A DNA stretch of 64,000 nt from Candidatus Moraniibacteriota bacterium (lineage in GTDB: Bacteria > Patescibacteriota > Minisyncoccia > Moranbacterales > UBA1568), in contig CAVURJ010000001.1 of the NCBI GenBank assembly GCA_963743885.1, forward strand, positions 12,949 through 76,948. Reading direction: 5' to 3'. Position 1 is the stretch's first letter. The number at the start of each line of letters is the position of its first letter. The notes under the pieces were generated by a model that saw nothing but the letters and a program-made list of their open reading frames with translations, searched no databases and was not told where the DNA came from. Made by a program: the position numbers and the translations under genes. Below are positions 45,674 through 64,000 of the stretch, piece after piece.

Positions 45674-45883
45674 CGTTAGACACAAATAATCGAGCTCTGC
45701 GAGACAAAAATAGAGACAGTAGGGTAAGTTTAGTGTGGTTTTCAAAAAGCAGAAAAGGGGCCAGGTACTTTTTTTTAGGCTTCCCTTACAATTGTACTCC
45801 CTCCAACAAAAAAACACACCCTTACGGATGTGTCTTTTCTTTATGCTCCGGCGATAGGATTCGAACCTATGACCAAGTGATTA

Positions 45884-46425
45884 CATGTGATCCTCTTGTT
45901 TCCAAGACGCATGGACTATATCATCTCCATCGCACATTGCATTAGGAGTGAGGCGCTTCGACTTTTTGCAAAGCCTACTCTCTTGCGAGATAGTCTCTGA
46001 ACCTTCCCTCTCGGGCTTGGCTGCTGATTACCATAATCGCGCTGAACGATCTTAGGCTTCCAGCAATTCACCTCATTTATCACTTTCGGATTTCTCCGAA
46101 AGGCTGCGTAGTTTTTCATGCTCCTCCCTGTGGCAATTCGCGCATATCAGGGTGCATTTTTTCAGTTCTTTCTCAATCCGCTCCCAACTTCTTGTCAGGC
46201 CATCTTGAGATATACCGAAATCTTTCCTTCCATCAATATGATGGAATTCAAGAGCACCGAAACAGCGATTATACCCACAGCGGGAGCATTTTCCGCCTTT
46301 GTATTCGATAGCGCGCAGTCGCATCATCTTACGACGCTTTGCAACGGCCCGCTTCAAATACTCTCGACGGTCAGCATAGGTTCTTGTGTCTGGCATACAT
46401 AAATAAGTATACCACACATGTTTCC
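45884..46425 (-). other. group I (IC3-like) self-splicing intron within tRNA-Asn
   Basis: The 5' exon ends in U and the intron ends in G (omega-G, ...CACAUG|UAA...). The 3' core carries the P7/J6-7 hallmark sequences UUCAGAGACUA and GAUAUAGUCC, a P8-like hairpin CUCUCGCAAGAGAG, and a P9 hairpin GUCUUGG-AAA-CAAGAGGA. The ORF sits near the 5' end, in the P1/P2 region. Confidence 0.75.
46073..46417 (-). CDS. HNH homing endonuclease encoded inside the group I intron
   Basis: 114 aa. CSRCGY...FHHIDG...CANCH, an HNH motif with two CxxC pairs. GTG start is 6 nt after the 5' splice site; an internal Met (MPDTR) is the alternative. Confidence 0.7.
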   Translation of the reverse strand: MWYTYLCMPDTRTYADRREYLKRAVAKRRKMMRLRAIEYKGGKCSRCGYNRCFGALEFHHIDGRKDFGISQDGLTRSWERIEKELKKCTLICANCHREEHEKLRSLSEKSESDK

Positions 46426-49605: not shown

Positions 49606-51000
<1,395 letters not shown>

Positions 51001-51084: not shown

Positions 51085-52896
51085 CTACTTCTCCGAGGAG
51101 ACTTTCACGAATTCCGCGAGCAGCCCCTTCTCTGCTTCCCGATCGCCAAGTTTCCTCGCCGCATAGATCGCCCGCTCGAGAGAGACAAGCTTTTCGCGCC
51201 GCGTCACCTCCCGCGTCAGATCCTCAAGGTACCGCTTGGCCATCGCCACCATGATACCGGACCGCTCTTCCTCTGGAGCGTTGGCCACCTCCGGCGTCTC
51301 AAGTGCTCGGAATGAGAGCCTCGCGGCATCCTGCTTCTTCGCCGTATCCTCAATGAGCGACAAGGGATCGCCTGCTCCAGCCTGGATAACGAAGAAAGAA
51401 AGCGGGTGCTGCCCTATCCATGTCTTCGTCTCCAGATCAGCAGATGGGTCATCGAGCACCGTCCGGACTAGCGGCTCCGCGATAGCGAGACCGATCAGCT
51501 CCTCGCGTAGAAGCTCCGAACGCTTGCCGAACACATGCGCATTCCTGATCGGATCCTCCACCTTCGCCGCCGGCTGATACGGAAGATCCCGACGTTGCTT
51601 CGCATCGAACGCAGCATTCACGACACCGATGACGATGCGCTCCTCCGTCCCAATCTCCCGGGCGAGCTCCTTGATCCAATGGGCGCGCTCGATCGGATTC
51701 TTCACAACCGCGAGAAACCCCGCATACTCATCGACGATCTTGCGCTTGCCTTCCGGCGTCGTCCGATCATGTAAAGCGAGGACAGCATCGAGAAAATACC
51801 GAGGCGCCGGCACCGATGCTGCTACCGACTCCCGGAGCTTCTCCGGACTTTCCTTGCCCATATCCGCTGCGTCCTTGCCCGAAGGAATAGCGACGAGAGT
51901 CACCGACATTTCCTTTTCTAGAGCCGCTTCCGCGCTCTTGCGGGCCGCCTTCTGACCGGCACCGTCCATATCGAAGAAAAGCTTGAGATCGTTACCATAG
52001 CGCTTCATGAGCGTGAGCTGCTCATCAGTGAGCGCCGTCCCGGATACCGCTACGGTATTGCCGATCCCAGCCTGGTGCATCGCGATGACATCCATATTCC
52101 CCTCGACGATCACTGCTCCACCTGCCTGCTTCATCGCCTGCTTGGCCAGATACAGTCCATAGAGCGCCCGGCTCTTGTGATACACCGCCGTCTCGGGAGT
52201 ATTGATATACTTGGCCTGCGATTCATCTCCTCCCGGCGCCACGCGTGCCGAATAGCCGATCACCCGGCCGAAGATATCGAGGATTGGAAACATGATGCGG
52301 TCACGAAAACGGTCATACTGTCCGTTACCACCTTCTTTCTTGATCGCCATGCCGGCATGCTCGATCTCATCCAGCCGATATCCCTTATCGACCAGAAACT
52401 CCAGCATGTGCCGCCAGCCGTCAGGCGCATAGCCAAGCCGGAACGTCTTGATACTCTCATCGGAAAGCCCGCGTCCACGGAGATACTCAAGGATCTTTCC
52501 CTTACCAGGCCCATCCCAGAGCTGCTTCTCATAGAACTTCGTCGCGAGCTCGAGCAGATCGAAGATACGGTCCTTCTCTTCCTTGTTCTCCTTGGCCGCA
52601 CCGCTGTTGTATTCTGGCAACTCCACGCCGGCACGCTCAGCGAGCATCCGGAGCGCCTCCTTGAACTCGAGTCCTTCGATCTCCATCACAAACGCGAAGA
52701 CATCGCCACCCTTGCCGCAGCCGAAGCAGTGCCACATGTTCTTCTCCTCGTTCACCATGAAAGACGGCGTCCGCTCCTGATGGAACGGGCAACAAGCCTT
52801 CCAGTGCACCCCGGACTTCGTGAGCTGGACGTACGATCCGATGAGCTCGACGATATTGAGACGCGCCTTGATTTCGTCTGTAGTTCCCGCACTCAT
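51085..52896 (-). CDS. dnaG: DNA primase
   Basis: 603 aa. Zinc ribbon CPFHQERTPSF...CFGCGKGGD. TOPRIM motifs EGNMDVIAMHQAG and DMDGAG. Confidence 0.9.
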   Translation of the reverse strand: MSAGTTDEIKARLNIVELIGSYVQLTKSGVHWKACCPFHQERTPSFMVNEEKNMWHCFGCGKGGDVFAFVMEIEGLEFKEALRMLAERAGVELPEYNSGAAKENKEEKDRIFDLLELATKFYEKQLWDGPGKGKILEYLRGRGLSDESIKTFRLGYAPDGWRHMLEFLVDKGYRLDEIEHAGMAIKKEGGNGQYDRFRDRIMFPILDIFGRVIGYSARVAPGGDESQAKYINTPETAVYHKSRALYGLYLAKQAMKQAGGAVIVEGNMDVIAMHQAGIGNTVAVSGTALTDEQLTLMKRYGNDLKLFFDMDGAGQKAARKSAEAALEKEMSVTLVAIPSGKDAADMGKESPEKLRESVAASVPAPRYFLDAVLALHDRTTPEGKRKIVDEYAGFLAVVKNPIERAHWIKELAREIGTEERIVIGVVNAAFDAKQRRDLPYQPAAKVEDPIRNAHVFGKRSELLREELIGLAIAEPLVRTVLDDPSADLETKTWIGQHPLSFFVIQAGAGDPLSLIEDTAKKQDAARLSFRALETPEVANAPEEERSGIMVAMAKRYLEDLTREVTRREKLVSLERAIYAARKLGDREAEKGLLAEFVKVSSEK

Positions 52897-53042
52897 ATAC
52901 TCCCGTGAAGCAATATTGGATTCTTTCCCTTAGAGTAGCGCTAAATGGCTCTAAAAAGCAAGAAAAAACATCTCTTTAATAGAAATAGGGAAGAAAAACC
53001 CTTACCATACCATTTTCCGACTCTCTTAATCCTCTTTTTATT

Positions 53043-53080
53043 TGTACATATTTTACTACGACCGTAGTAAAATATGTACA
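53043..53080. promoter_or_regulatory. 38-bp perfect palindrome (copy 1), between the PaaX-like gene and the dnaG start
   Basis: tgtacatattttactacg-ac-cgtagtaaaatatgtaca. Confidence 0.7.
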
Positions 53081-53127
53081 CGAGCAAAGACAAGAAAACG
53101 AGAGTCGTAACAAGAAATCATCGGCAA

Positions 53128-53808
53128 CTACTTGAGACCGAACTCCTTCTTAAGCCAGTCATTATTCTCTATCTCCCCTGCCACGATATAGACAAGCTCT
53201 TTCCCCATCTTGTACTGAGCCTTGAGCAGCGCTATGACCCGCTCACACTCATACGGATACACCCACACGCTCTCCTGAAGCTTCACAAAACCAAATGAGC
53301 GCATATCCTCACGAGCATGATCCCTGAGGTGCCGCTTCTTCTCTTCAATATCAAAAATAACTATCCGCCATTTCCCATCCCAGCGCCAACGCTTGAGCGA
53401 TCGCTCTTTCAGCTGATACCGAAGCAATTCTTGCCGACCCTTTTCTGTCAGCCGAACCACTGTTTCACCATCTCTTAGAAAGATAGTCACCATCCCTCGA
53501 CGAGCAAGGCGTTTCACGGCTTCTCGAGCGAAAGCCTCAGAATAATAGCGCCGATGAAGCTTTTTCCCGCGCTTCTCAAATATTTTCACTGCCTGCACGA
53601 TATTCGGCGCTGCAAGTGCAATCGTCATCAAACCAGCAACTGCCACAGCCCCAAGCAAAGCCGACCCTACAAGACCATACGGGAGACGCTCCTTCTTTTC
53701 CTGCTTTCTTATCGATTTTCCCTGCCGATTCTTACTATCATCCGAAGTCGACTTTTCACTTTTCGAACCAGTTTTTTTCTTACCTGTTTCCATATGATTT
53801 ATTTTCAT
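53128..53808 (-). CDS. PaaX-like (PaaX_C domain) putative transcriptional regulator
   Basis: About 226 aa from MKINHMETG. C-terminal ...WRIVIFDIEEKKRHLRDHAREDMRSFGFVKLQESVWVYP resembles PaaX_C. The longer track ORF to 53952 would read through the upstream palindrome. Confidence 0.5.
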   Translation of the reverse strand: MKINHMETGKKKTGSKSEKSTSDDSKNRQGKSIRKQEKKERLPYGLVGSALLGAVAVAGLMTIALAAPNIVQAVKIFEKRGKKLHRRYYSEAFAREAVKRLARRGMVTIFLRDGETVVRLTEKGRQELLRYQLKERSLKRWRWDGKWRIVIFDIEEKKRHLRDHAREDMRSFGFVKLQESVWVYPYECERVIALLKAQYKMGKELVYIVAGEIENNDWLKKEFGLK

Positions 53809-53856
53809 ACGTCTTATTTTTTGTATTATACTACCTCCTCGTGCCACCCATCTCTC

Positions 53857-53894
53857 TGTACACATTTTACTACGGTCGTAGTAAAATGTGTACA
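53857..53894. promoter_or_regulatory. 38-bp perfect palindrome (copy 2), about 50 bp upstream of the PaaX-like gene start
   Basis: tgtacacattttactacg-gt-cgtagtaaaatgtgtaca. It differs from copy 1 only at symmetric positions and at the centre. Confidence 0.7.
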
Positions 53895-54082
53895 GTACAG
53901 AAAAAAAACGGTGGGGTGGTATTACTGGTGAGAAATAGAGGGAATAGCACAACGAGAGGAAGATTTATACTTAGTGAATCTCCCACAGGCTTACGCTCAG
54001 TGGTTTTTTGATATTCAAACAGCATAGCTGTTTGCCACACTTAAGTGCGAAGTGCCCCCATCCAACGGGCTTACGCCCGGGG

Positions 54083-54110
54083 ATTTGTACACACTATTAA
54101 GAAAATCTCC
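54083..54110. terminator. bidirectional terminator
   Basis: aaaatctcccg-ataaaa-cgggagatttt flanked by A-run and T-run. Confidence 0.75.
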
Positions 54111-54203
54111 CGATAAAACGGGAGATTTTTGACTTATTATGCCGCTCTTCCTGCCTGCTGGTAGGCATGGGATGCGGGATCCAGGTTTTCTTTCCGAATC
54201 TTT

Positions 54204-54247: not shown

Positions 54248-55036
54248 TCATTTATTCCCGACGATGACGAGGATATCGGTGCCGGGGTTCGCTTCGCCCT
54301 CAGGCAGCGTACCAACCATGCCGCCAAGGCTCTCAGCTATGCTCTTGGCCAGATCAGCATGCTTACCGGACAGGTCAATGACGAGATTCCCCTGGTAATC
54401 ATTCTTCGCGGCCTTCTCCTTCGCCACCACTTCGGTATCCGCAAACGCAGCCTTGATGTCGCTCTCAAGCGTGTTCGTTACCCCTACTTTCGTAGAACCA
54501 TTATAGAGAGCTACCGTTACATGCGTAACCTCGGAAGTCGCCTCAGAGGTACTCTGTTCCGACACCGGAGCGATAGGAGTAGTCTCGGTCGCAGGCGCAG
54601 ATGTTTGTGTTGGCTGTTGGCTATTGGCTACTCCCTGGTTCACATTGACCGTCGTCACATCGACGATCTTCTTCGTGCTCGGACGATAGAGGATTGCCCG
54701 ACCGCTATTGGTATAGATGAGCACCTTATCGCCATTCTCTGCCCGCTGGAAAAAAGGCTGCTCTGCGAGCTTCTCCCGATCGGTCACAGTCGCCAGGGTC
54801 GGAGTCTCCCCCGTCGGCAGTTCGAGCACATCCCCGATAGTCTTGGTCAGATTCGCTATCTCATCGCTCTCCGCAGCAGGCACGGCATGCTTGTACTGAT
54901 AGTAGAAGTATCCCGCAACACCGAAAGAAATCAGAAGGAGGAACACCAAAACAACGATGACCGGCAAAGCCCGGTTCGAATGCACGATGGCAACCGGCTC
55001 GGCTGCTATTGATTTTTGTTTCACTGCCCGAGGCAT
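54248..55036 (-). CDS. hypothetical N-terminally anchored exported protein
   Basis: 262 aa. A single TM helix after a short cytoplasmic tail. The C-terminal domain is unassigned. Confidence 0.45.
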   Translation of the reverse strand: MPRAVKQKSIAAEPVAIVHSNRALPVIVVLVFLLLISFGVAGYFYYQYKHAVPAAESDEIANLTKTIGDVLELPTGETPTLATVTDREKLAEQPFFQRAENGDKVLIYTNSGRAILYRPSTKKIVDVTTVNVNQGVANSQQPTQTSAPATETTPIAPVSEQSTSEATSEVTHVTVALYNGSTKVGVTNTLESDIKAAFADTEVVAKEKAAKNDYQGNLVIDLSGKHADLAKSIAESLGGMVGTLPEGEANPGTDILVIVGNK

Positions 55037-56133: not shown

Positions 56134-56601
56134 TTACCTCGAAACCGAAATCTCGCTCTCGACCTCCGGATTGCAAGCGCGGACAGTCACGATATTATTA
56201 CTGTCCAATTCTACCATATAACCCGTCCTCGCGGCATTTCCATCCCTCGGATCAAAAGGAATGTCTTTAAGGTATCTTGCCAAATCGGTGCTCAGATCAA
56301 GACAGCCATCCACATTCGATGTCGTGCACCCATGGATATCCGTAAATATACATCCCCCGGATTCCGTTCCAAGCTGTCGCCCTGGATTTTCAACTCCAGA
56401 AGGGAACTGCCCCTTATTATCGATAACGTATTGGGCGATTGCTGTTGATATCGACTCTATATCGGCATGACGTCTTGCATCCCGAGCATCCTGAAACCGC
56501 TTCAGTGGATCAAGCGCAACCACGACGACCGTCGCCAAAACAGCAATGATGCCGATGACGAGAAGGATCTCAATAAGAGTGAACCCCGAACGATTTTTCA
56601 T
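56134..56601 (-). CDS. type IV pilin / pseudopilin (prepilin N-terminal methylation domain)
   Basis: About 155 aa from MKNRSGFTLIEILLVIGIIAVLATVVVVAL, the class III signal peptide with G|F cleavage site and Glu+5. Confidence 0.7.
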   Translation of the reverse strand: MKNRSGFTLIEILLVIGIIAVLATVVVVALDPLKRFQDARDARRHADIESISTAIAQYVIDNKGQFPSGVENPGRQLGTESGGCIFTDIHGCTTSNVDGCLDLSTDLARYLKDIPFDPRDGNAARTGYMVELDSNNIVTVRACNPEVESEISVSR

Positions 56602-56822
56602 GAAGCTTGTCGTTACAGGAAGATTGTGAGGCGAAGCCGCTTCCGCGGCAGGATCTTGCCCGGGCAGTACACTCTCTCGAAAATCGTACGGGGTGAAGCC
56701 TTTTTGATTTTTTCGCATACAAAAACAGCAGAATCTACGCATAGGATAGCAGTTTTCCCGTTATTTTCCAAGAAAAACACGCTCGAGATGAGCGTGTTTC
56801 CAATATTCATCACACGGATACC

Positions 56823-59800
56823 TTACAGCGCGGGCTCTGCCGGCAAAACTTCGGTGGTGGCACCCACCTCGGTATTCGGCACCTCAACCGACGGGGCCGA
56901 TTCCTCAACGAATGGCGCCGGACCAGGGACGGTCGTATCCACAGCGGGCAGCGGCACTATCTGATCGGCTTCTTCGGTCTCCTTCTCTTCCTCAGAAACG
57001 CTCACATTTGCCTTCTTCACAGCGACAGCCACCCACGAGAACCGAAGATCGGCCGGGGCTTTCTGATTGAGGACGATCGTAAAGCCGTCCTTCCCCTTCT
57101 CCGTCACGATATACTTCATATCCGCCGCGAAGACCGTATCAAGATACTCTTGCTCCACGAGCGCAATATCCGCCCGGAGATCCTTGTCCGCCTCATCATC
57201 GAGAAGCGGCGAGACATCATTTGTCATGCTGACCGCGACGATCGGCTGCCGCTCATACGCCGTACCGAACGGCACACGAACCTTTCGCTCCCCCTTCTTG
57301 ATAACCGCAAATCCGGCCGTATCCGATCCGAAAGTCGGCGCCTGCTCAAAGGTCGTCTTGCCACTGAAGACGGCATCCCCGATGAAGGAGGCGAGCTTCG
57401 AGAAGACCGTCTCACCGGCGAATTCCGCATCTCCGCCGATCCGAAGTGCTCCCGCGACCGAAAGCTTGCCCAGGATGCTGCCGTCCATCTGGACGACGAA
57501 CGAATCGACAGACAGCTTCTTCATGGCGATAGAGAGCTGTTCCTTCACGACGCTTGCGGCTTCCGAAGAACCATTCTGGGCTCCCGCTGCCGCTTCCAGT
57601 CCGGCATACTTCTCTTCCAGGCTGCCGATCTGATCAGTGAAGATCTGGAGACCCTCGATCGAGTCCGCCTTGATACTCTTGGCAAAGATCTGGTCGGCAT
57701 AGAGCGTCGGGGTGATCACCTCGTCCGAAGCTGCCACGCGACCCGTGAAGATCTCCGACGGAGCCATATTTTTCTTCTCGTTCTCATCGCGGACCGTCTT
57801 CAGGAACGCTAGGATCTTCTCCTCCTTGGTCGGTTCTGCTGCTGCCAGACGGATACTTGCTGCATCACCGGCATCCAGCCCGCTCACAGCGGCATCCGCA
57901 GAAGCATCAGAAACGATGCCTGCCTGATCCAGAGATTCCTTTTGCTGCATCGCCAATTCGACCGGCATGCCGGAATAATCAGCCAGATTGACGAAAACCA
58001 TGGCCGTACCGCAAAGAGCATCTTCTCCCAGCCCATACTCTATCGGACACTGTGCGAAATCTCCAGGGACCGGATCATTCAAAACCTGTCCGATTACCCG
58101 TCCAGCCTGCGTCGCTCTCATGGCATAACCGGAAACAGTCGACGCCGTCAACCGCTCACCGGCAGCTGGCCAGCCATTTTGGTTGGTCACCTTGACAGGA
58201 ACCCGTCCGACAAGAGCGATAGGATAACTGTTTTCCGCCTCTGTGCCGAGAATGATGCCTGGCTGTGTCGCCACAACGCCGATCACATCGCGCTGGTATG
58301 CGCCAGTCGTCCGTTTTACCCCCGCATCAAGAGACGTGTCGACAGAGACCAGTTCTCCCGCTTCAAGCGATTCGTTAGAATAATATCTTTCTGCCAAGTC
58401 TGCCCCGCCCAACACTCCAGTATCCGGCGACGTGCCAAGAAGGCCATCGACGAGAAGCTCTTTCTGAATGGAATCAATATTCGTTATGATCTGGTCAATC
58501 GACTGGTCAAAACTCTCATCTTCACGACCGATCCAAACGCCGGCGAGAGAACCGAAGACGACAGCATCTTCAGCGACGCTGATCGAGGTAACATCATCGA
58601 AGTCCGTCCCCGTCCATTCCGTCCCGCCGTCATCGGTTTTTTCTGAATCGCCATGGAAAACATCAGTGATATACCCGCTGCCATACCCTTGGAAGACGCT
58701 GACGCCGCCGCCATCGGCCCCATCGCTCGTTCCGACATACCTCTCTCGCATTTTCCCTAGGAAATTCGTGTCCGTAACCGCGACTGAAGTCACCGTATTA
58801 CTCGAACCATACAACTGCTCCGGAATTATCTCGAAGTCAGATGTTGTATCTGGTGTTGTAGAAAACGCCGGCGAAACAGTCAGTGTCGTAGCTGTATTGC
58901 CTGTTACCCGCCTCGTTTGACCGACACCGGTATCACTCGTGATTTCAACTATGGAGCCAGCGAACTGATTCAATACCCAAGCCTCCCCGGAATCGCCGAT
59001 TGTCGTCGAGGTAGCAGTTGTCGCATCCGTAACACGCACCGAGCTATGCCGAAGCGCCTGGACTCCATCATTATACATACGACGCGCCTGGGCCTGCGTA
59101 AGCGTATCAGACGTTGTGGCACCGCCGCCTGCAAAGTAGACATCATCAATCTGTCCGTCCCAGAAGTTTCCGCCAGCTGCACCAGATCCGTCAGCTCCTA
59201 TCGTAAGGATGTTTCCGGAAAGCGTCGCAGTTGCAGCCAGCGTAGTATCACAGGCCACTGCCAATCGCCCATCAATATAGAGACAGAGCGCGGCATCGGT
59301 GTTTACCGCCGTGACGTTGTGCCATTGATTGTCATTGTACGCTAGCGTCGAAGTCACCGAGTCATCGTATGCGGCTGTCGCAGCTGTATCCTGAATACCG
59401 AAGATGATGTTGCCCGTAGAACTCATTTCAATGGTGTAGCCGATGCCCTCTGCACCGCCCAACGTCGGGTAGCGCTTATCAACCAGGACATCGGTGCCCG
59501 CCATAGCCGTCGGATGCTTGAACCACAACGACACGTGGAACGAGATGGCGGCCGTATCAAAATCAGTATCCACATCGCAAGTACCATCATTGTTGGCGTC
59601 AGAACAGAGGAACTGCGAGGTACCATTGAAAGACAGTCCCGTCCCACGCACGCCATTCACGCCGTAGGTCGGTGCGACTTCCGGCTCCAGCACGCTGTTC
59701 CGAATGGTAGAGTCAACCAAATCACCGGTCGTCTCATTGAATGAAAACATCCCGCGTGGAGTTCCTGACATATACGGCGTGATGCGGTTCGTATCATAAA

Positions 59801-62800
59801 ATTTCGACCAGCCGATGACCGTACCGGAAGGAGCGTTCACATCATGGATTTCCGTCAGTCCTTGGCTATGCCCGACATAAACAACGTCTGCCTTGGCAGT
59901 ATCAGCCGTACCTTCCGCGTATGTTTCACGCTCAAGCACCCACATCGCGTCAGCGGTAGTCGCGACGGTTGGCGCGGTTTTAAAGGCATTCGGAAGGTTT
60001 CCGGTCGCCTCATCCCATATATCGTCAGGCCCCGCATCGTTAGCAACGGACGTTTCGATATCGTTGTAGCGCTCTATTTCAGCAAGCGTTTCATTTACGA
60101 GATAAAGCCTGCCACGACGCGTAACCCAGACCTGGTTTATATCATCCGTCGTAGCGCCATCGGCATACCGCAGCACTCTTCCTGAGGTCATGTTTATGAC
60201 TTGAGCGGCATCATCCGTCGCGACAGCGATGAAAAGGTTTCCATTAAGCGGACCACCGTTCGTCTGAGTGATGCTCGATCCATACATATTGGCGCCATGG
60301 ATATCATTGACAACGTTGCTGAATATCGAGAGCGCCGTAATCGCACCGGACGAATACGCGACAACCGTATTGCGGCTCGCAATATTCTTATCTCCGTTTG
60401 TACGATCCACAGAATCAAAATTCTGGATCCGATCGTTATAAAAGTCAATCGCATACATGCCTGTCGGCGATGATCCTTTGGTTCCGACATACACCACGCC
60501 GTTTATTCCGAACACGCTCGATGGGTCATTATTGGTATTCGTACCGAGCGCACACGGTCCAGTCACGCAGCTTCCAGCCGCATCCTGGTCGAATTTCATC
60601 CACATGCTCCCGTCTTGAGCATCGAAGATATACATTGCCGAAGTAGTCGCAACAAGAATAGCTTTCCTCGGAAAGGCTGCCCGTCCACATCGGTCATCAG
60701 TGAGCGCGCATGCATCACCAGGACCATCATCTTTCGTTTCGACATACCAACTCGCACCCTGAACAGATGGATTATTGATCCATGCTCCTCCATCGCTATC
60801 ACGAGTCGTATCGTATACGAACACTGATTGGATGTTAGCAAGCGCCGTATGGTCATTTAAGCCCTTCCGTAAATAATCACCGTACACAACAGCATCCCCC
60901 CGGCTCGTTGCGCTGCCGATTTGGAGCTTTGTCGTATTCGTTACTCCATTATAGGCGGCGATATTTTCGGTACCGATACCGACAGCCCCGTTGCCATCCA
61001 CGATAAATGGTGTCGTATCGCCAGAGGCATCATCAATACGGAGACCATTGCCTATCCCACGGTTATCTACCTTGATAGCATCATTGGCAATACCAGTATT
61101 GAGCTGCTCCACGCCGAACGTGAAGGCACTGTCCGTACCAGCAGAAGCTGGGTTGCTCACGATGATAGAATCTTGCGTCCCATCCAAAGTGATGGTCTGA
61201 TTGCCAGCCGCACCAGTATTATACGTACCGGCCAGATCAGCGCCGCTGCCACCAGCGATCGTACATTCTGTCTGGCTGCCGCTATCCGTACATGTGACAC
61301 CGGCGCCGAGGAAGGCGAGCGTGGTGCGCGAGGTGAGCGATGTCGTCTCGTCTTTGACCAGGTTGTAACCGCTCCCTACGCCGCCGACAGTCGTCCAGCC
61401 TGATCCATTGTACGTGATGAGCTGATTGCCGGCCGCATCCCAAGCAAGATAGCCTTCGCCGGACGTCGGGCTTGATGGCGAAGCAGAAGCGGCGTTCGGC
61501 AGGCGGAGACCTTGGTTAGCTGTCGTACCGTGCGTGATGAGCGCTAGATCGACAAAAGCTGCGGAAGCCGCAGAAATAGACTGGCTCGCCGAAAGGCTGA
61601 TGCCACCATTCGCCGTCAGCACACCAGCCAAAGTCAAAGCACCGGTCGAAGCGACGAAGTCGGTACCGGTGTTGCCAATGTTCGTGAGGATATTGGTATT
61701 AGCATCGATGGTACCCGAGAGCGTATGAGCACCGACCGTATCGGTCGACGCATCAAAGGTGATACCGCCGTTCGCGGCGATGGCACCAGAAGACGTAATG
61801 CCGGCTACGGCCGTAATAACACCCGAACTATCAACTTGGAAAAGATCGCCATTCCCCACAGTGAAAAGCGCTGCGGGAGTGGTATCGCCAACACCGACGT
61901 TGCCACCCGAAAGGATGGTCACTTTATCAGTATCATTCGTCTTGATAGCGAAATTATGATTAGTCGCCGTGCCGACATACCCGCCATTGGGATTCAACGA
62001 TCCAAGCTCCGTCTCTATATTCGACGAATTCTCCCTCACGACGAAGTTGACTGCAGCACCGCCACTAGCAAGGCCCTGGATATACGTCATAGCGGGATTG
62101 ACGAGCGCCTCATACGATGTCCCGGTACCAAGCACGCCAAAAGCGGCGTATCCAGCCGATGTTGTATTGATACCGACAAATCCGCCGTTGAAGACGGCAG
62201 CATAATTCGCATCCGCGCCGCTCACATTGACGTAAAGACCCGTATTGGTCGAAGTACCACCAGTATCCCCGGTCAAACTTATATACTGGCCATAATTATT
62301 AATCGTACCGCCCGTCGCGCCGGTCCGTGTAACAGTCGTGTAATCCCCGTAGGTCGTATCGGTGCCGGTCGTAACGATACCCGTATCAGAGACAGTATTG
62401 GTGGAACCATACTCCGTACCGGCAGTTGTGCTCGTCGAAGCCAGATTGAGGTCAAGGATGGCATCTGGCGTCGCATCACCGAGGCCAAGCCGGAAATTGG
62501 TATTATCCCAAAAGAACTGCCCATTATTTTGATTAAGAACACCGGAAGCCCCAGCAAAGAGGACAGAGCCCTCCGTAGCCGAGGTAATCGATCCGCCGAT
62601 ACTCATGCCTCCGCCCGAGAGTGTCGTCCACGCGGTGCCATTGTAGGTGATGAGCTGATTGCCGGCCGCATCCCAAGCAAGATAGCCTTCGCCTGAGGTT
62701 GGATTGGATGGCGTAGCTGATGCAGCGTTCGGCAAGCGGAGACCTTGATTGGCCGTCGTGCCATGCGTGACCGAAGCAAGATCGATGAACGAGGCTGCTC

Positions 62801-64000
62801 CGCCAGTGAGCGACTGGCTCGCTGCGAGACTGATGCCTCCGTTCGCCGTCAAGACACCGGCCAAGGTCAAAGCGCCGGTCGAAGCGATGAAGTCGGTGCC
62901 GGTGTTGCCGATATTCTCGAGGATATTTGTATTGGCATCAAGCGTTCCAGAGAGCGTATGAGCACCGACCGTATCGGTCGAAGCATCGAAGGTGATGCCG
63001 GCATTAGCGGCGATAGCCCCTGTGGAGGTGATGCCTACCACAGCAGCGATGGCGCCGGAAGAGTTCACCTGGAAGAGGTCGCCGCTACCGACCGTAAGGA
63101 GGGCGGCCGGGGTGCTATCGCCGATACCAGTATACCCCGTTGAAAGAATAGTAACCTTCGCAGTATTGCTCGGGCCAATCATAGTGGAATTAGCCGTACC
63201 ATTGGTAATACCATTACCAAAGGCGGACGCATTGAGAGCCGAAACAGTGTTGCCGTAACCGAAAGCCGAAGCGTTATCACTAGTGGAAGTGTTGTTTGCG
63301 CCAATCGCTATAGCATAACCGGCCGTCGTCGCAGTATTGCCATATCCTACCGCAACGGTCCGATCATATGTCGCGACGTTATTGGATCCAACAGCAGTCG
63401 CATTCGCATTCCAAGCGCTGTTACCATACCCAGCATTAAGCGCAAGACTCGTACTCCCTATACTAACCATGCCCGGACCGATAGCCACAGCTCCCCCTTG
63501 GAAACTGGCAGCATAATTCGTATCCGCCCCTGAAACGTCTACATACAAGCCGTAGTTAGTCGAAGTGCCGCCCGTATCACCAGTAACCGAGATGTATTGG
63601 CCATAATTATTGACCACAGCCGTTCCTCCTGTTCCAGTCCTCGTGACGGTGGTATAGCCGCCATACGTAGAATCAGTACCACTTGTAACAACACCGGTAT
63701 CAGAGATGGTATTCGTAAAGCTATATTCCGTACCAGCAGTCGCATTCGTCGATACCAGGTTGAGATCGAACACGGCATCCGGTGTCGTATCCCCAAGCCC
63801 GAGGCGATGATTGGCCAGGTCGTAATAGAAGGATGTATTGTCGCTGGACAGTGCTCCGTTCGTGGTTGCAAAAACGACAGACCCTACGGTCGGAGCGAAC
63901 CAGGTCGGAGCACCGGCACCGCCTGAGACGAGAGCAAGGCCGGAGTTGGCATTAGCCGCCAGGACGGAAAGGGCTGAAGCCGTAGAATAAACGATGCCTC
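56823..64000 (-). CDS. giant secreted repeat protein (more than 2390 aa, 5'-partial: the ORF remains open to the window edge) with three or more tandem ~290-aa repeats, a LamG/ConA-like domain and a C-terminal beta-rich region
   Basis: The track start at 63773 is a GTG inside a repeat. The upstream in-frame translation (...FYYDLANHRLGLGDTTPDAVFDLNLV) continues the repeat seen twice internally (NFRLGLGDATPDAILDLNLAST...). LamG-like segment LSFNGTSQFLC...WHNVTAV...LYIDGRL. Confidence 0.7.
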   Translation of the reverse strand, partial: GIVYSTASALSVLAANANSGLALVSGGAGAPTWFAPTVGSVVFATTNGALSSDNTSFYYDLANHRLGLGDTTPDAVFDLNLVSTNATAGTEYSFTNTISDTGVVTSGTDSTYGGYTTVTRTGTGGTAVVNNYGQYISVTGDTGGTSTNYGLYVDVSGADTNYAASFQGGAVAIGPGMVSIGSTSLALNAGYGNSAWNANATAVGSNNVATYDRTVAVGYGNTATTAGYAIAIGANNTSTSDNASAFGYGNTVSALNASAFGNGITNGTANSTMIGPSNTAKVTILSTGYTGIGDSTPAALLTVGSGDLFQVNSSGAIAAVVGITSTGAIAANAGITFDASTDTVGAHTLSGTLDANTNILENIGNTGTDFIASTGALTLAGVLTANGGISLAASQSLTGGAASFIDLASVTHGTTANQGLRLPNAASATPSNPTSGEGYLAWDAAGNQLITYNGTAWTTLSGGGMSIGGSITSATEGSVLFAGASGVLNQNNGQFFWDNTNFRLGLGDATPDAILDLNLASTSTTAGTEYGSTNTVSDTGIVTTGTDTTYGDYTTVTRTGATGGTINNYGQYISLTGDTGGTSTNTGLYVNVSGADANYAAVFNGGFVGINTTSAGYAAFGVLGTGTSYEALVNPAMTYIQGLASGGAAVNFVVRENSSNIETELGSLNPNGGYVGTATNHNFAIKTNDTDKVTILSGGNVGVGDTTPAALFTVGNGDLFQVDSSGVITAVAGITSSGAIAANGGITFDASTDTVGAHTLSGTIDANTNILTNIGNTGTDFVASTGALTLAGVLTANGGISLSASQSISAASAAFVDLALITHGTTANQGLRLPNAASASPSSPTSGEGYLAWDAAGNQLITYNGSGWTTVGGVGSGYNLVKDETTSLTSRTTLAFLGAGVTCTDSGSQTECTIAGGSGADLAGTYNTGAAGNQTITLDGTQDSIIVSNPASAGTDSAFTFGVEQLNTGIANDAIKVDNRGIGNGLRIDDASGDTTPFIVDGNGAVGIGTENIAAYNGVTNTTKLQIGSATSRGDAVVYGDYLRKGLNDHTALANIQSVFVYDTTRDSDGGAWINNPSVQGASWYVETKDDGPGDACALTDDRCGRAAFPRKAILVATTSAMYIFDAQDGSMWMKFDQDAAGSCVTGPCALGTNTNNDPSSVFGINGVVYVGTKGSSPTGMYAIDFYNDRIQNFDSVDRTNGDKNIASRNTVVAYSSGAITALSIFSNVVNDIHGANMYGSSITQTNGGPLNGNLFIAVATDDAAQVINMTSGRVLRYADGATTDDINQVWVTRRGRLYLVNETLAEIERYNDIETSVANDAGPDDIWDEATGNLPNAFKTAPTVATTADAMWVLERETYAEGTADTAKADVVYVGHSQGLTEIHDVNAPSGTVIGWSKFYDTNRITPYMSGTPRGMFSFNETTGDLVDSTIRNSVLEPEVAPTYGVNGVRGTGLSFNGTSQFLCSDANNDGTCDVDTDFDTAAISFHVSLWFKHPTAMAGTDVLVDKRYPTLGGAEGIGYTIEMSSTGNIIFGIQDTAATAAYDDSVTSTLAYNDNQWHNVTAVNTDAALCLYIDGRLAVACDTTLAATATLSGNILTIGADGSGAAGGNFWDGQIDDVYFAGGGATTSDTLTQAQARRMYNDGVQALRHSSVRVTDATTATSTTIGDSGEAWVLNQFAGSIVEITSDTGVGQTRRVTGNTATTLTVSPAFSTTPDTTSDFEIIPEQLYGSSNTVTSVAVTDTNFLGKMRERYVGTSDGADGGGVSVFQGYGSGYITDVFHGDSEKTDDGGTEWTGTDFDDVTSISVAEDAVVFGSLAGVWIGREDESFDQSIDQIITNIDSIQKELLVDGLLGTSPDTGVLGGADLAERYYSNESLEAGELVSVDTSLDAGVKRTTGAYQRDVIGVVATQPGIILGTEAENSYPIALVGRVPVKVTNQNGWPAAGERLTASTVSGYAMRATQAGRVIGQVLNDPVPGDFAQCPIEYGLGEDALCGTAMVFVNLADYSGMPVELAMQQKESLDQAGIVSDASADAAVSGLDAGDAASIRLAAAEPTKEEKILAFLKTVRDENEKKNMAPSEIFTGRVAASDEVITPTLYADQIFAKSIKADSIEGLQIFTDQIGSLEEKYAGLEAAAGAQNGSSEAASVVKEQLSIAMKKLSVDSFVVQMDGSILGKLSVAGALRIGGDAEFAGETVFSKLASFIGDAVFSGKTTFEQAPTFGSDTAGFAVIKKGERKVRVPFGTAYERQPIVAVSMTNDVSPLLDDEADKDLRADIALVEQEYLDTVFAADMKYIVTEKGKDGFTIVLNQKAPADLRFSWVAVAVKKANVSVSEEEKETEEADQIVPLPAVDTTVPGPAPFVEESAPSVEVPNTEVGATTEVLPAEPAL
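61411..63000. repeat. intragenic tandem duplication of about 1.23 kb at roughly 85-90% identity (61411-61770 versus 62641-63000 are near-identical)
   Basis: gtacgtgatgagctgattgccggccgcatcccaagcaagatagccttcgcc... occurs at both positions. The protein repeats ~290 aa. Confidence 0.8.

Follow-up and report, generated by a model that had tools for sequence, protein, structure and literature searches.

The PaaX-like regulator gene that lies directly upstream of dnaG and rpoD in a Candidatus Moraniibacteriota genome is bracketed by two long, near-identical palindromes, and palindromes of the same class are strongly concentrated around the genes of its protein family in Patescibacteria. The locus is part of a 64,000-nucleotide stretch of contig CAVURJ010000001.1 (hereafter, the window). 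The reading that we favour, with somewhat more confidence than doubt, is that gene and palindromes make up a self-contained, autoregulated accessory unit: a truncated, predicted membrane-anchored PaaX-like dimer would bind the flanking palindromes, site positions 13–19 (counted from the dyad) would set its specificity, and the upstream site would also serve as promoter.

Both palindromes are perfect over 18+2+18 nucleotides. As the gene is encoded on the minus strand, the copy at 53857–53894 (TGTACACATTTTACTACG-GT-CGTAGTAAAATGTGTACA, with arms of 19 bp when the flanking C/G is counted) is the upstream one, 63 nt from the ATG at 53793 and 48 nt from an alternative ATG at 53808. The other copy, at 53043–53080 (TGTACATATTTTACTACG-AC-CGTAGTAAAATATGTACA), lies 47 nt past the stop codon and precedes the dnaG ATG by 146 nt and the conserved dnaG -35 box (52961–52956) by 82 nt. 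The two copies differ at position 7/32, where T·A in one corresponds to C·G in the other, a symmetric and compensated change. The only other difference is in the central dinucleotide, AC in one copy and GT in the other, so that the centre is inverted. In the 64 kb, a degenerate 38-mer pattern with up to three mismatches detected just this pair, compared with 0.00 sites in 100 shuffles, and the longest palindrome arm in shuffled windows was 12; the remaining long palindromes of the window resemble A-run/T-run terminators. The initial annotation, which described two perfect 38-bp palindromes of an uncommon size that differ only at symmetric positions, is thus borne out. It also placed the second copy between the stop codon of the gene and dnaG, inside the promoter region; the first part is correct, but the copy lies upstream of the core dnaG promoter and not within it.

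Folded as DNA hairpins, the upstream palindrome reaches -15.1 kcal/mol (z = -8.5) and the downstream one -13.7 kcal/mol (z = -7.6), with perfect 17–18-bp helices as stems. A sigma-70-like element (TACACA-17-TAAAAT) is found within the upstream palindrome, directed toward the gene (minus strand, 53892 to 53864), with overlap on both strands, and the downstream palindrome holds a promoter-like element pointing to dnaG. Neither the palindromes nor the 200-nt spacer of the unit match an Rfam family; just sub-threshold microRNA-like hairpin matches were obtained. A role as intrinsic terminators was considered and rejected for the window copies, in which no T-run follows the stem, whichever strand is read; some other loci have one.

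The family to which the protein belongs comprises at least 157 protein clusters and at least 590 loci in Patescibacteria, with genomes taken one per species. Palindromes were scanned in the best 80 family loci, one genome per species, 72 of them with complete flanks, and the class was defined as 30–60 bp in length, with a centre of 0 or 2 nt and a core of CG-GT/AC-CG, GCTATAGC or GCGGCCGC. Within 200 bp of family genes, 54 such palindromes were found in 32.8 kb, against 5 in the other 365 kb, which is an approximately 120-fold higher density. Among the loci with complete flanks, 26 of the 72 carry the palindrome on both sides and nine on one side, and weaker copies are present in some of the remaining loci. 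The upstream copy ends around 10–90 nt before the start codon and the downstream copy begins 13–120 nt after the stop. Read from the dyad, the centre of the site is conserved, positions 6–12 are A/T-rich and positions 13–19 are variable; the arms are lineage-specific and differ between loci and between paralogues of the same genome. Neither copy is systematically better kept, the upstream one being the worse in 14 loci and the downstream one in nine (p = 0.40; row L087 was entered with a wrong centre and is to be disregarded). The genes downstream of family loci are unrelated and lie in either orientation, about a third of them convergent, so the downstream copy is not generally an operator of the next gene.

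The protein encoded between the palindromes consists of a basic N-terminal tail, a hydrophobic segment at residues 40–62 approximately, a winged helix and a Cas2-like PaaX_M domain (around residues 137–207), stopping about 15 residues past the latter. PaaX_M (PF20803, 'PaaX central Cas2-like domain', E = 2.6e-19) was the sole Pfam match above threshold; it is matched by all 48 family members compared, and Pfam Cas2 by 38 of the 48 at E < 0.01. Neither the window protein nor any of the 48 members has a Pfam match to PaaX_C, and the NCBIfam PaaX equivalog TIGR02277 aligned only to residues 84–192, with 43.1 bits against a cutoff of 264.55. The label 'PaaX-like' of the initial annotation therefore holds for PaaX_M and the winged helix, but not for PaaX_C or for the equivalog. 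The Cas2 models also stay below their cutoffs (TIGR01573, 22 bits versus 24.5; Pfam Cas2, 18 bits versus 23.8 for the window protein), and a single-sequence search of the Cas2-like domain against solved Cas2 chains returned no match.

An AlphaFold2 model built with 48 homologues (predicted local distance difference test score of 77, and above 90 across the C-terminal 130 residues) displays a winged helix, with the recognition helix at residues 86–98 approximately and the wing at 102–115, followed by a beta-alpha-beta-beta-alpha-beta domain. The best solved-structure match to this model is E. coli W PaaX (8a39), with Cas2 chains and small winged-helix proteins ranking lower; among the weaker ones are AspA and TubR, two centromere-binding proteins with a winged helix (E of about 1e-3 to 1e-2). 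The family alignment contains the invariant residues Asp148 (at the end of strand beta1), E151, R157, R161, Q173, S175 and W177, and its motif F-D-I...Q-x-S-V-W conforms to the Cas2 pattern. In a single alignment, E. coli PaaX has no Asp at the position equivalent to Asp148. The hydrophobic segment reaches a Kyte–Doolittle hydropathy (19-residue window) of 2.13 at residues 41–60 in the window protein, and a segment of transmembrane strength (1.76–2.53), with basic residues on either side, is present in 48/48 members; a membrane anchor is thus predicted for this PaaX-like family.

The arrangement of the outer hexamers in the window palindrome, TGTACA-N26-TGTACA, matches the geometry of the hexamers in the E. 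coli PaaX operator, TGATTC(N27)GAATCA (PMC9493321), and the variable positions 13–19 of the family site coincide in location with these hexamers. Furthermore, site positions 13–19 co-vary across 40 loci with the recognition-helix segment of the protein (residues 80–98) when the distance in the rest of the protein is regressed out (partial Mantel r = 0.18, p = 0.0005). No correlation was detected between the recognition helix and site positions 5–12 (r = 0.02, p = 0.27), and the wing gave r = 0.06. The co-variation is modest, and it falls where an operator model predicts it. A site spanning the -35 to -10 region is the classical arrangement for autorepression. Promoter-like elements are also found at the orthologous locus L087 (TTCCCA-17-TAAAAT in the upstream copy; TTCACA-17-TAAAAT in the downstream copy, 10/12). 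The recurrence of the palindromes, the co-variation and the PaaX geometry give comparative support to the view, already put forward in the initial annotation, that the palindromes are autoregulatory operators; this evidence suggests that they are cognate operators of the protein whose gene they flank, and the overlap of the upstream one with a promoter-like element is indicative of autoregulation.

The palindromes, their bracketing of the gene across the family, the co-variation, the geometry and the presence or absence of the unit are observed, whereas DNA binding, repression and what the downstream site does are inferred. In the proposed mechanism, the dimer would set its two recognition helices on the lineage-variable positions 13–19 on either side of the dyad. 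Conserved contacts or bendability would come from the conserved CG core and from the A/T-rich stretches that separate the hexamers. Since a sigma-70-like promoter directed into the gene coincides in part with the upstream site, binding at this site would autorepress the gene. The downstream site would close the unit, most likely as a second looping anchor or as a roadblock or insulator, and in the window genome it may add a regulator-controlled promoter upstream of dnaG.

Several observations weigh against an operator-only explanation. No palindrome of this class was found at the thresholds used in 37 of the 72 loci; the co-variation test keeps some phylogenetic non-independence; the orthologue L089 has no promoter match at the threshold of the tool; and T occupies the first -10 position in merely 19% of half-sites in the family profile. 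Convergent genes often enclose the downstream copy, a setting in which a promoter operator is impossible. In addition, four distinct palindromes that share the inner 22-mer occur on contigs without a family gene. These orphans were detected in a metagenome scan with the 22-mer (TTTTACTACGNNCGTAGTAAAA), which returned six contigs carrying four distinct perfect palindromes of 34–36 bp with different outer arms and central dinucleotides (AT or GC). Of the orphan palindromes at L084 (8192–8227) and L086 (4352–4387), one precedes a 23S rRNA gene by about 600 bp and the other follows an RNase P RNA gene at a distance of about 120 bp; neither a second paralogue nor a hidden homologue was found near the orphans. 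The orphans may either serve the regulons of related regulators or be dispersed copies.

A further objection arises from the way in which the two copies change. When they were compared within 16 loci, 22 positions were found with both arms changed and complementarity kept, together with 20 one-sided changes. Thirteen of the compensated changes are internal, and hence free of palindrome-extension bias, against roughly 0.4 expected under independence (our estimate from divergence); the T·A/C·G difference in the window is one of the compensated cases. A winged-helix dimer needs no perfect symmetry over 36–46 bp, and the compensated changes point to intrastrand pairing, either selected or hairpin-templated, beyond read-out by a protein alone. 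Hairpin-templated correction of quasi-palindromes during replication is a known mutational process. Two explanations remain for the compensated changes, a correction of this type, which would be functionally neutral, and selection for an extruded hairpin or cruciform; a hairpin-based mechanism is thereby kept possible. Among the mismatches of imperfect palindromes, counted on the sense strand, G·T/T·G (16) and A·C/C·A (18) are balanced, and this lack of a G·U-compatible bias indicates that the constraint acts on DNA and not on RNA.

The gene is absent from all of eight relatives sampled via DnaG (59–88% identity), so that 8/11 relatives lack the unit, including the two closest by DnaG (88% and 79% identity). 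At these empty sites, the terminator hairpin of the upstream LytR_C-like gene leads directly into (A)TTTGCTTTTTAGAGCCATTTAGCGCTACTCT, which is the dnaG promoter-like element TTGCTT-N18-TACTCT; every Moranbacteria-like relative examined has this element about 30 nt before the start of dnaG. The similarity between the window and the empty sites L094–L097 ends at the stop codon and terminator of LytR_C (around 54100) and resumes at 52961, which gives a unit of about 1.1 kb. It is composed, in order, of approximately 200 nt of non-coding sequence, palindrome, gene, palindrome and approximately 80 nt of non-coding sequence. The proportion of G and C (GC) is 0.35–0.40 in the flanks and 0.46–0.52 in the gene, versus 0.57–0.62 in dnaG, in agreement with the AT-rich cassette originally noticed. 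The orthologues L087 and L089 (64–65% protein identity) keep the order LytR_C–palindrome–gene–palindrome–dnaG–rpoD, with diverged, clearly related palindromes whose downstream site begins 35–36 nt after the stop.

On the DnaG neighbour-joining tree, the window is sister to the empty L094 (100% bootstrap) and then to the empty L095, and L089 groups by identity (76–80%) with the empty L096, L097 and L099. This pattern implies either at least three gains at one junction or at least four seamless losses. No solo palindrome or footprint was detected at any of the eight empty sites. The palindromes lie inside the borders of the unit, by about 200 and 80 nt in the window and by 12 and 46 nt in L089, and both junctions, inspected for a target-site duplication, are T-rich (TTTTCTT-like) and of low complexity. 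Recent transposition was examined and rejected, as identical proteins are always found in one context: P0062 (24 contigs) and P0110 (22 contigs), mostly from different samples, each have a single context with invariant palindromes. Carriage by phages or plasmids was likewise rejected, the family being essentially absent from these collections (one weak match in 2.9 million viral contigs, none in phage records and one weak match in plasmid records). Judged by these comparisons, the unit is accessory and turns over slowly, on long time scales, its palindromes are subterminal and not termini, and no current transposition is shown. The mobile cassette considered in the initial annotation survives as a patchily distributed, lower-GC insertion or deletion; the idea that the palindromes are its terminal repeats does not, given their distance from the borders, the lack of solo palindromes, the single contexts and the near-absence from phages and plasmids.

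The best-surviving alternative, unlikely in our judgement, is a selfish element dependent on hairpins or cruciforms, whose winged helix–Cas2-like protein recognizes the folded palindromes and mediates, or once mediated, excision, insertion or copying, following the logic of REP/RAYT or IS200/IS605 with an unrelated nuclease fold. The 13 internal compensated changes and the strong hairpin potential are in line with it, as are the clean empty sites and patchy occupancy of one junction, the GC of the unit below that of its neighbours, the invariant Asp148 with the matches of 38/48 members to Pfam Cas2, the orphan palindromes of the same style, and the many genomic contexts with several paralogues per genome. 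It is opposed by palindromes placed 12–200 nt within the borders at distances that vary between orthologues, by eight empty sites that bear no trace of the element, by the constant contexts of P0062 and P0110, by a copy number of just two in 64 kb and by the scarcity in viral, phage and plasmid collections. Moreover, no HUH/Y1 or recombinase domain was found in Pfam, NCBIfam and PADLOC scans of the window protein and family. In its most specific form, a previously unrecognized selfish or semi-mobile module of Patescibacteria, in which a Cas2-fold nuclease–winged helix would recognize the palindromes as hairpins or cruciforms and move or copy itself seamlessly, the idea would account at once for the compensated changes, the lack of traces at empty sites, the orphans and the recurrence of the unit at the LytR_C|dnaG junction; we regard this form, too, as improbable.

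The other three alternatives are less likely than a selfish element. The first, which we consider rather remote, is that both ends of the transcript, 5′ and 3′, carry the palindromes as RNA hairpins that work as stabilizers, terminators or sites of processing, which the Cas2/VapD-like domain might bind or cut. The perfect 17–18-bp stems would suit such a role, in L080 a T-run comes after the palindromes, in the manner of an intrinsic terminator, and the downstream palindrome of L087 was flagged as terminator-like on one strand. Relatives of the domain, Cas2 and VapD, are known ribonucleases. Against this stand the balanced mismatch counts, with no G·U bias, and the window copies, which lack a U-tract after the stem on either strand. 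Furthermore, the promoter-like elements put the likely start of transcription at or after the upstream palindrome, and the winged helix whose sequence co-varies with the arms is of the DNA type.

Slightly more doubtful still is that the palindromes are anchoring or centromere-like sites, where a membrane-tethered winged-helix protein tethers or organizes DNA in the manner of AspA or TubR and no transcription is controlled. This possibility draws on the hydrophobic segment of transmembrane strength in 48/48 members, on the weak sequence and fold matches of the winged helix to AspA and TubR, and on the presence of sites at both sides of the gene whatever its neighbours. Nevertheless, no partition ATPase or GTPase gene lies beside the family genes examined, the AspA and TubR matches (E of about 1e-3 to 1e-2) reflect generic winged-helix similarity, and the membrane anchor is a prediction.

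Finally, it is very improbable that the PaaX-like protein is a dedicated dnaG–rpoD regulator with the downstream palindrome as the operator of that operon: the unit lies directly upstream of dnaG–rpoD in the window lineage and also in the distant Nomurabacteria locus L018, and its downstream palindrome holds a promoter-like element toward dnaG, but 8/11 relatives use the same conserved promoter without the unit, the distance from the downstream palindrome to the dnaG promoter varies (82 nt in the window to the -35 box, about 45–50 nt in L089 and about 150 nt in L087), and 79/80 family loci are not beside dnaG. L018 was the only one of the 80 family loci with dnaG downstream in a protein-versus-DNA search with the DnaG and RpoD of the window, and synteny with dnaG was therefore rejected as a general rule. 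As most of the relatives sampled have no counterpart of the unit and keep the same dnaG promoter, the unit does not appear to be a conserved control of dnaG–rpoD. A conserved role in the control of macromolecular synthesis is thus not supported by the sequences compared, and the action on this operon that the initial annotation contemplated finds no support in that form; a local effect in the window genome, for example through an extra regulator-controlled promoter toward dnaG or a roadblock, is possible.

The proposed autoregulated unit resembles PaaX in its domain order, an N-terminal winged helix followed by a Cas2-like central (dimerization) domain, with 8a39 as the best fold match, and in its site, two 6-bp inverted repeats about 26–27 bp apart (binding by the family protein being proposed). 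PaaX autorepresses via a site at its own promoter in the E. coli and Pseudomonas systems. The family differs from PaaX in several respects: it has no PaaX_C ligand-binding domain, adds a hydrophobic anchor and keeps the Asp at the Cas2 catalytic position that is missing from E. coli PaaX in one alignment. Neither are there paa genes among the neighbours examined (LytR_C, beta-lactamase-like, dnaG and rpoD, with unrelated genes elsewhere). The whole 38 bp is perfectly palindromic here, instead of two hexamers, and a second copy lies downstream of the gene. With Cas2 and VapD, the family shares the beta-alpha-beta-beta-alpha-beta fold (in the model), the motif pattern and near-threshold scores, but its domain is fused to a winged helix and a predicted membrane anchor and scores below the curated cutoffs. 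Neither cas1 nor a CRISPR array was noticed and no Cas1 domain is present among the called neighbours, although no systematic search was run.

In the REP/RAYT system, a stable single-copy gene is likewise flanked on both sides by cognate palindromes, with one repeat class per paralogue, few intergenic orphans and compensatory changes that preserve the hairpin. In contrast, the protein described here is not a Y1/HUH enzyme, the copy number of its palindromes is very low (two in 64 kb, and around one orphan per 70 kb, or five in 365 kb, in related loci), and the palindromes are perfect and twice the typical REP length. The unit is comparable to IS200/IS605 elements in its small size (about 0.8–1.1 kb), single gene, subterminal hairpin-forming ends and seamless empty sites; it differs from them in carrying a single PaaX_M gene instead of TnpA/TnpB, in showing no evidence of recent transposition and in the unconserved distances between palindromes and ends. 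AspA and TubR are also small winged-helix proteins with a palindromic site beside their own gene, to which the similarity is weak, but the family is chromosomal, has an extra Cas2-like domain and lacks a partition NTPase partner. The attC sites of integron cassettes are imperfect, with extrahelical bases, and form arrays near intI, whereas here the palindromes are perfect, stand at both sides of the gene and form no such arrays; no integrase gene was seen in the neighbourhoods examined.

A PaaX-type regulator with a long operator is already known, and the family-wide bracketing was not found in the literature searched, where queries on PaaX with Cas2-like domains, the Candidate Phyla Radiation, and structure or palindromes returned nothing on this family or its bracketing architecture. 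To our knowledge, almost nothing has been established experimentally about transcription factors and their sites in Patescibacteria (Candidate Phyla Radiation). Because the palindromes bracket the gene, the proposed cognate sites can be read straight from the genome and their specificity region (positions 13–19) matched to the recognition helix, which yields protein–site pairs ready for binding experiments. The family also extends the PaaX architecture to a short, predicted membrane-anchored form that keeps Cas2-like catalytic features. Moreover, its seamless presence or absence upstream of dnaG–rpoD, together with the compensated palindromes, raises the question of whether such units are autoregulated accessory regulators or a hairpin-based selfish element.

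The features of the locus are collected in Table 1. The genes are encoded on the minus strand throughout, as called in the list of open reading frames (ORFs), including the LytR_C-like gene upstream of the unit (54248–55036).

Table 1. Coordinates of the PaaX-like locus and its neighbours in the window (a dot indicates no assigned strand).
Feature	Position	Strand	Remarks
Upstream palindrome	53857–53894	.	Proposed operator (from perfect symmetry, promoter-like match and hairpin fold)
PaaX-like gene, 221 amino acids	53128–53793	-	Alternative in-frame start at 53808; database protein P0001 starts at 53793
Downstream palindrome	53043–53080	.	Candidate second cognate site (pattern scan, hairpin fold, orthologous sites in L087/L089)
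Accessory unit, about 1.1 kb	52962–54100 (approximate)	-	Similarity to empty-site relatives breaks off; lower GC
LytR_C-like gene terminator hairpin	54101–54130	.	Upstream border of the inserted unit; terminator-like site, equivalent in empty-site relatives
Conserved dnaG promoter-like element, TTGCTT-N18-TACTCT	52932–52961	-	Same in L094–L097, L087 and L089
dnaG	51085–52896	-	Followed by rpoD (49606–51000); downstream operon; ORF list and Pfam domains of orthologues

The non-coding segment of about 200 nt at 53895–54100 contains an imperfect 26-nt direct repeat (53981–54006 and 54061–54086, 77% identical), and an isolated half-site similar to the outer arm, TGTACACAC, adjoins the terminator at 54086–54094.

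Other arrangements were observed among the family loci. L006 (2311–2630 and 3620–3655) carries three copies of the palindrome, around 135–150 bp apart, upstream of the gene and one downstream, forming an array. L080 (1000–2330) also has three copies, and the segment 'palindrome + about 110 nt + tRNA-Leu-like sequence' is duplicated at either side of the gene, with 87% identity over 158 nt; the palindromes there are followed by a T-run and are intrinsic-terminator-like. A general association with tRNA genes was considered and discarded, since the 14 tRNAs in 46 loci are approximately what we estimate for small genomes and represent no enrichment. More long palindromes (34–48 bp), with CG-rich or GCTATAGC centres and differing sequences, were found in intergenic positions a few kb from family genes in L044 (5462–5505), L008 (3198–3245), L051 (888–929) and L053 (6321–6354); they may be sites of other paralogues.

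Elsewhere in the window, a giant ORF of 2316 amino acids (56823–63773, minus strand), with abundant Gly/Thr/Ser repeats, is found upstream of a pilin-like gene (56134–56742) and a beta-lactamase-like gene, and this gene order is kept in L087 and L095. A group I intron (Rfam RF00028, 84.7 bits, 46127–45892) was detected in the region 45835–46420 of the minus strand. It is followed by an apparent 3′ half of a tRNA (…GGTTCGAATCC…CGCCGGAGCA), and ARAGORN called no tRNA across the 64-kb window. An ORF of 114 amino acids (46073–46417), with the HNH-like motif CANCHREEH at its end, overlaps the intron. The region is probably an intron-split tRNA gene that carries a homing-endonuclease ORF.

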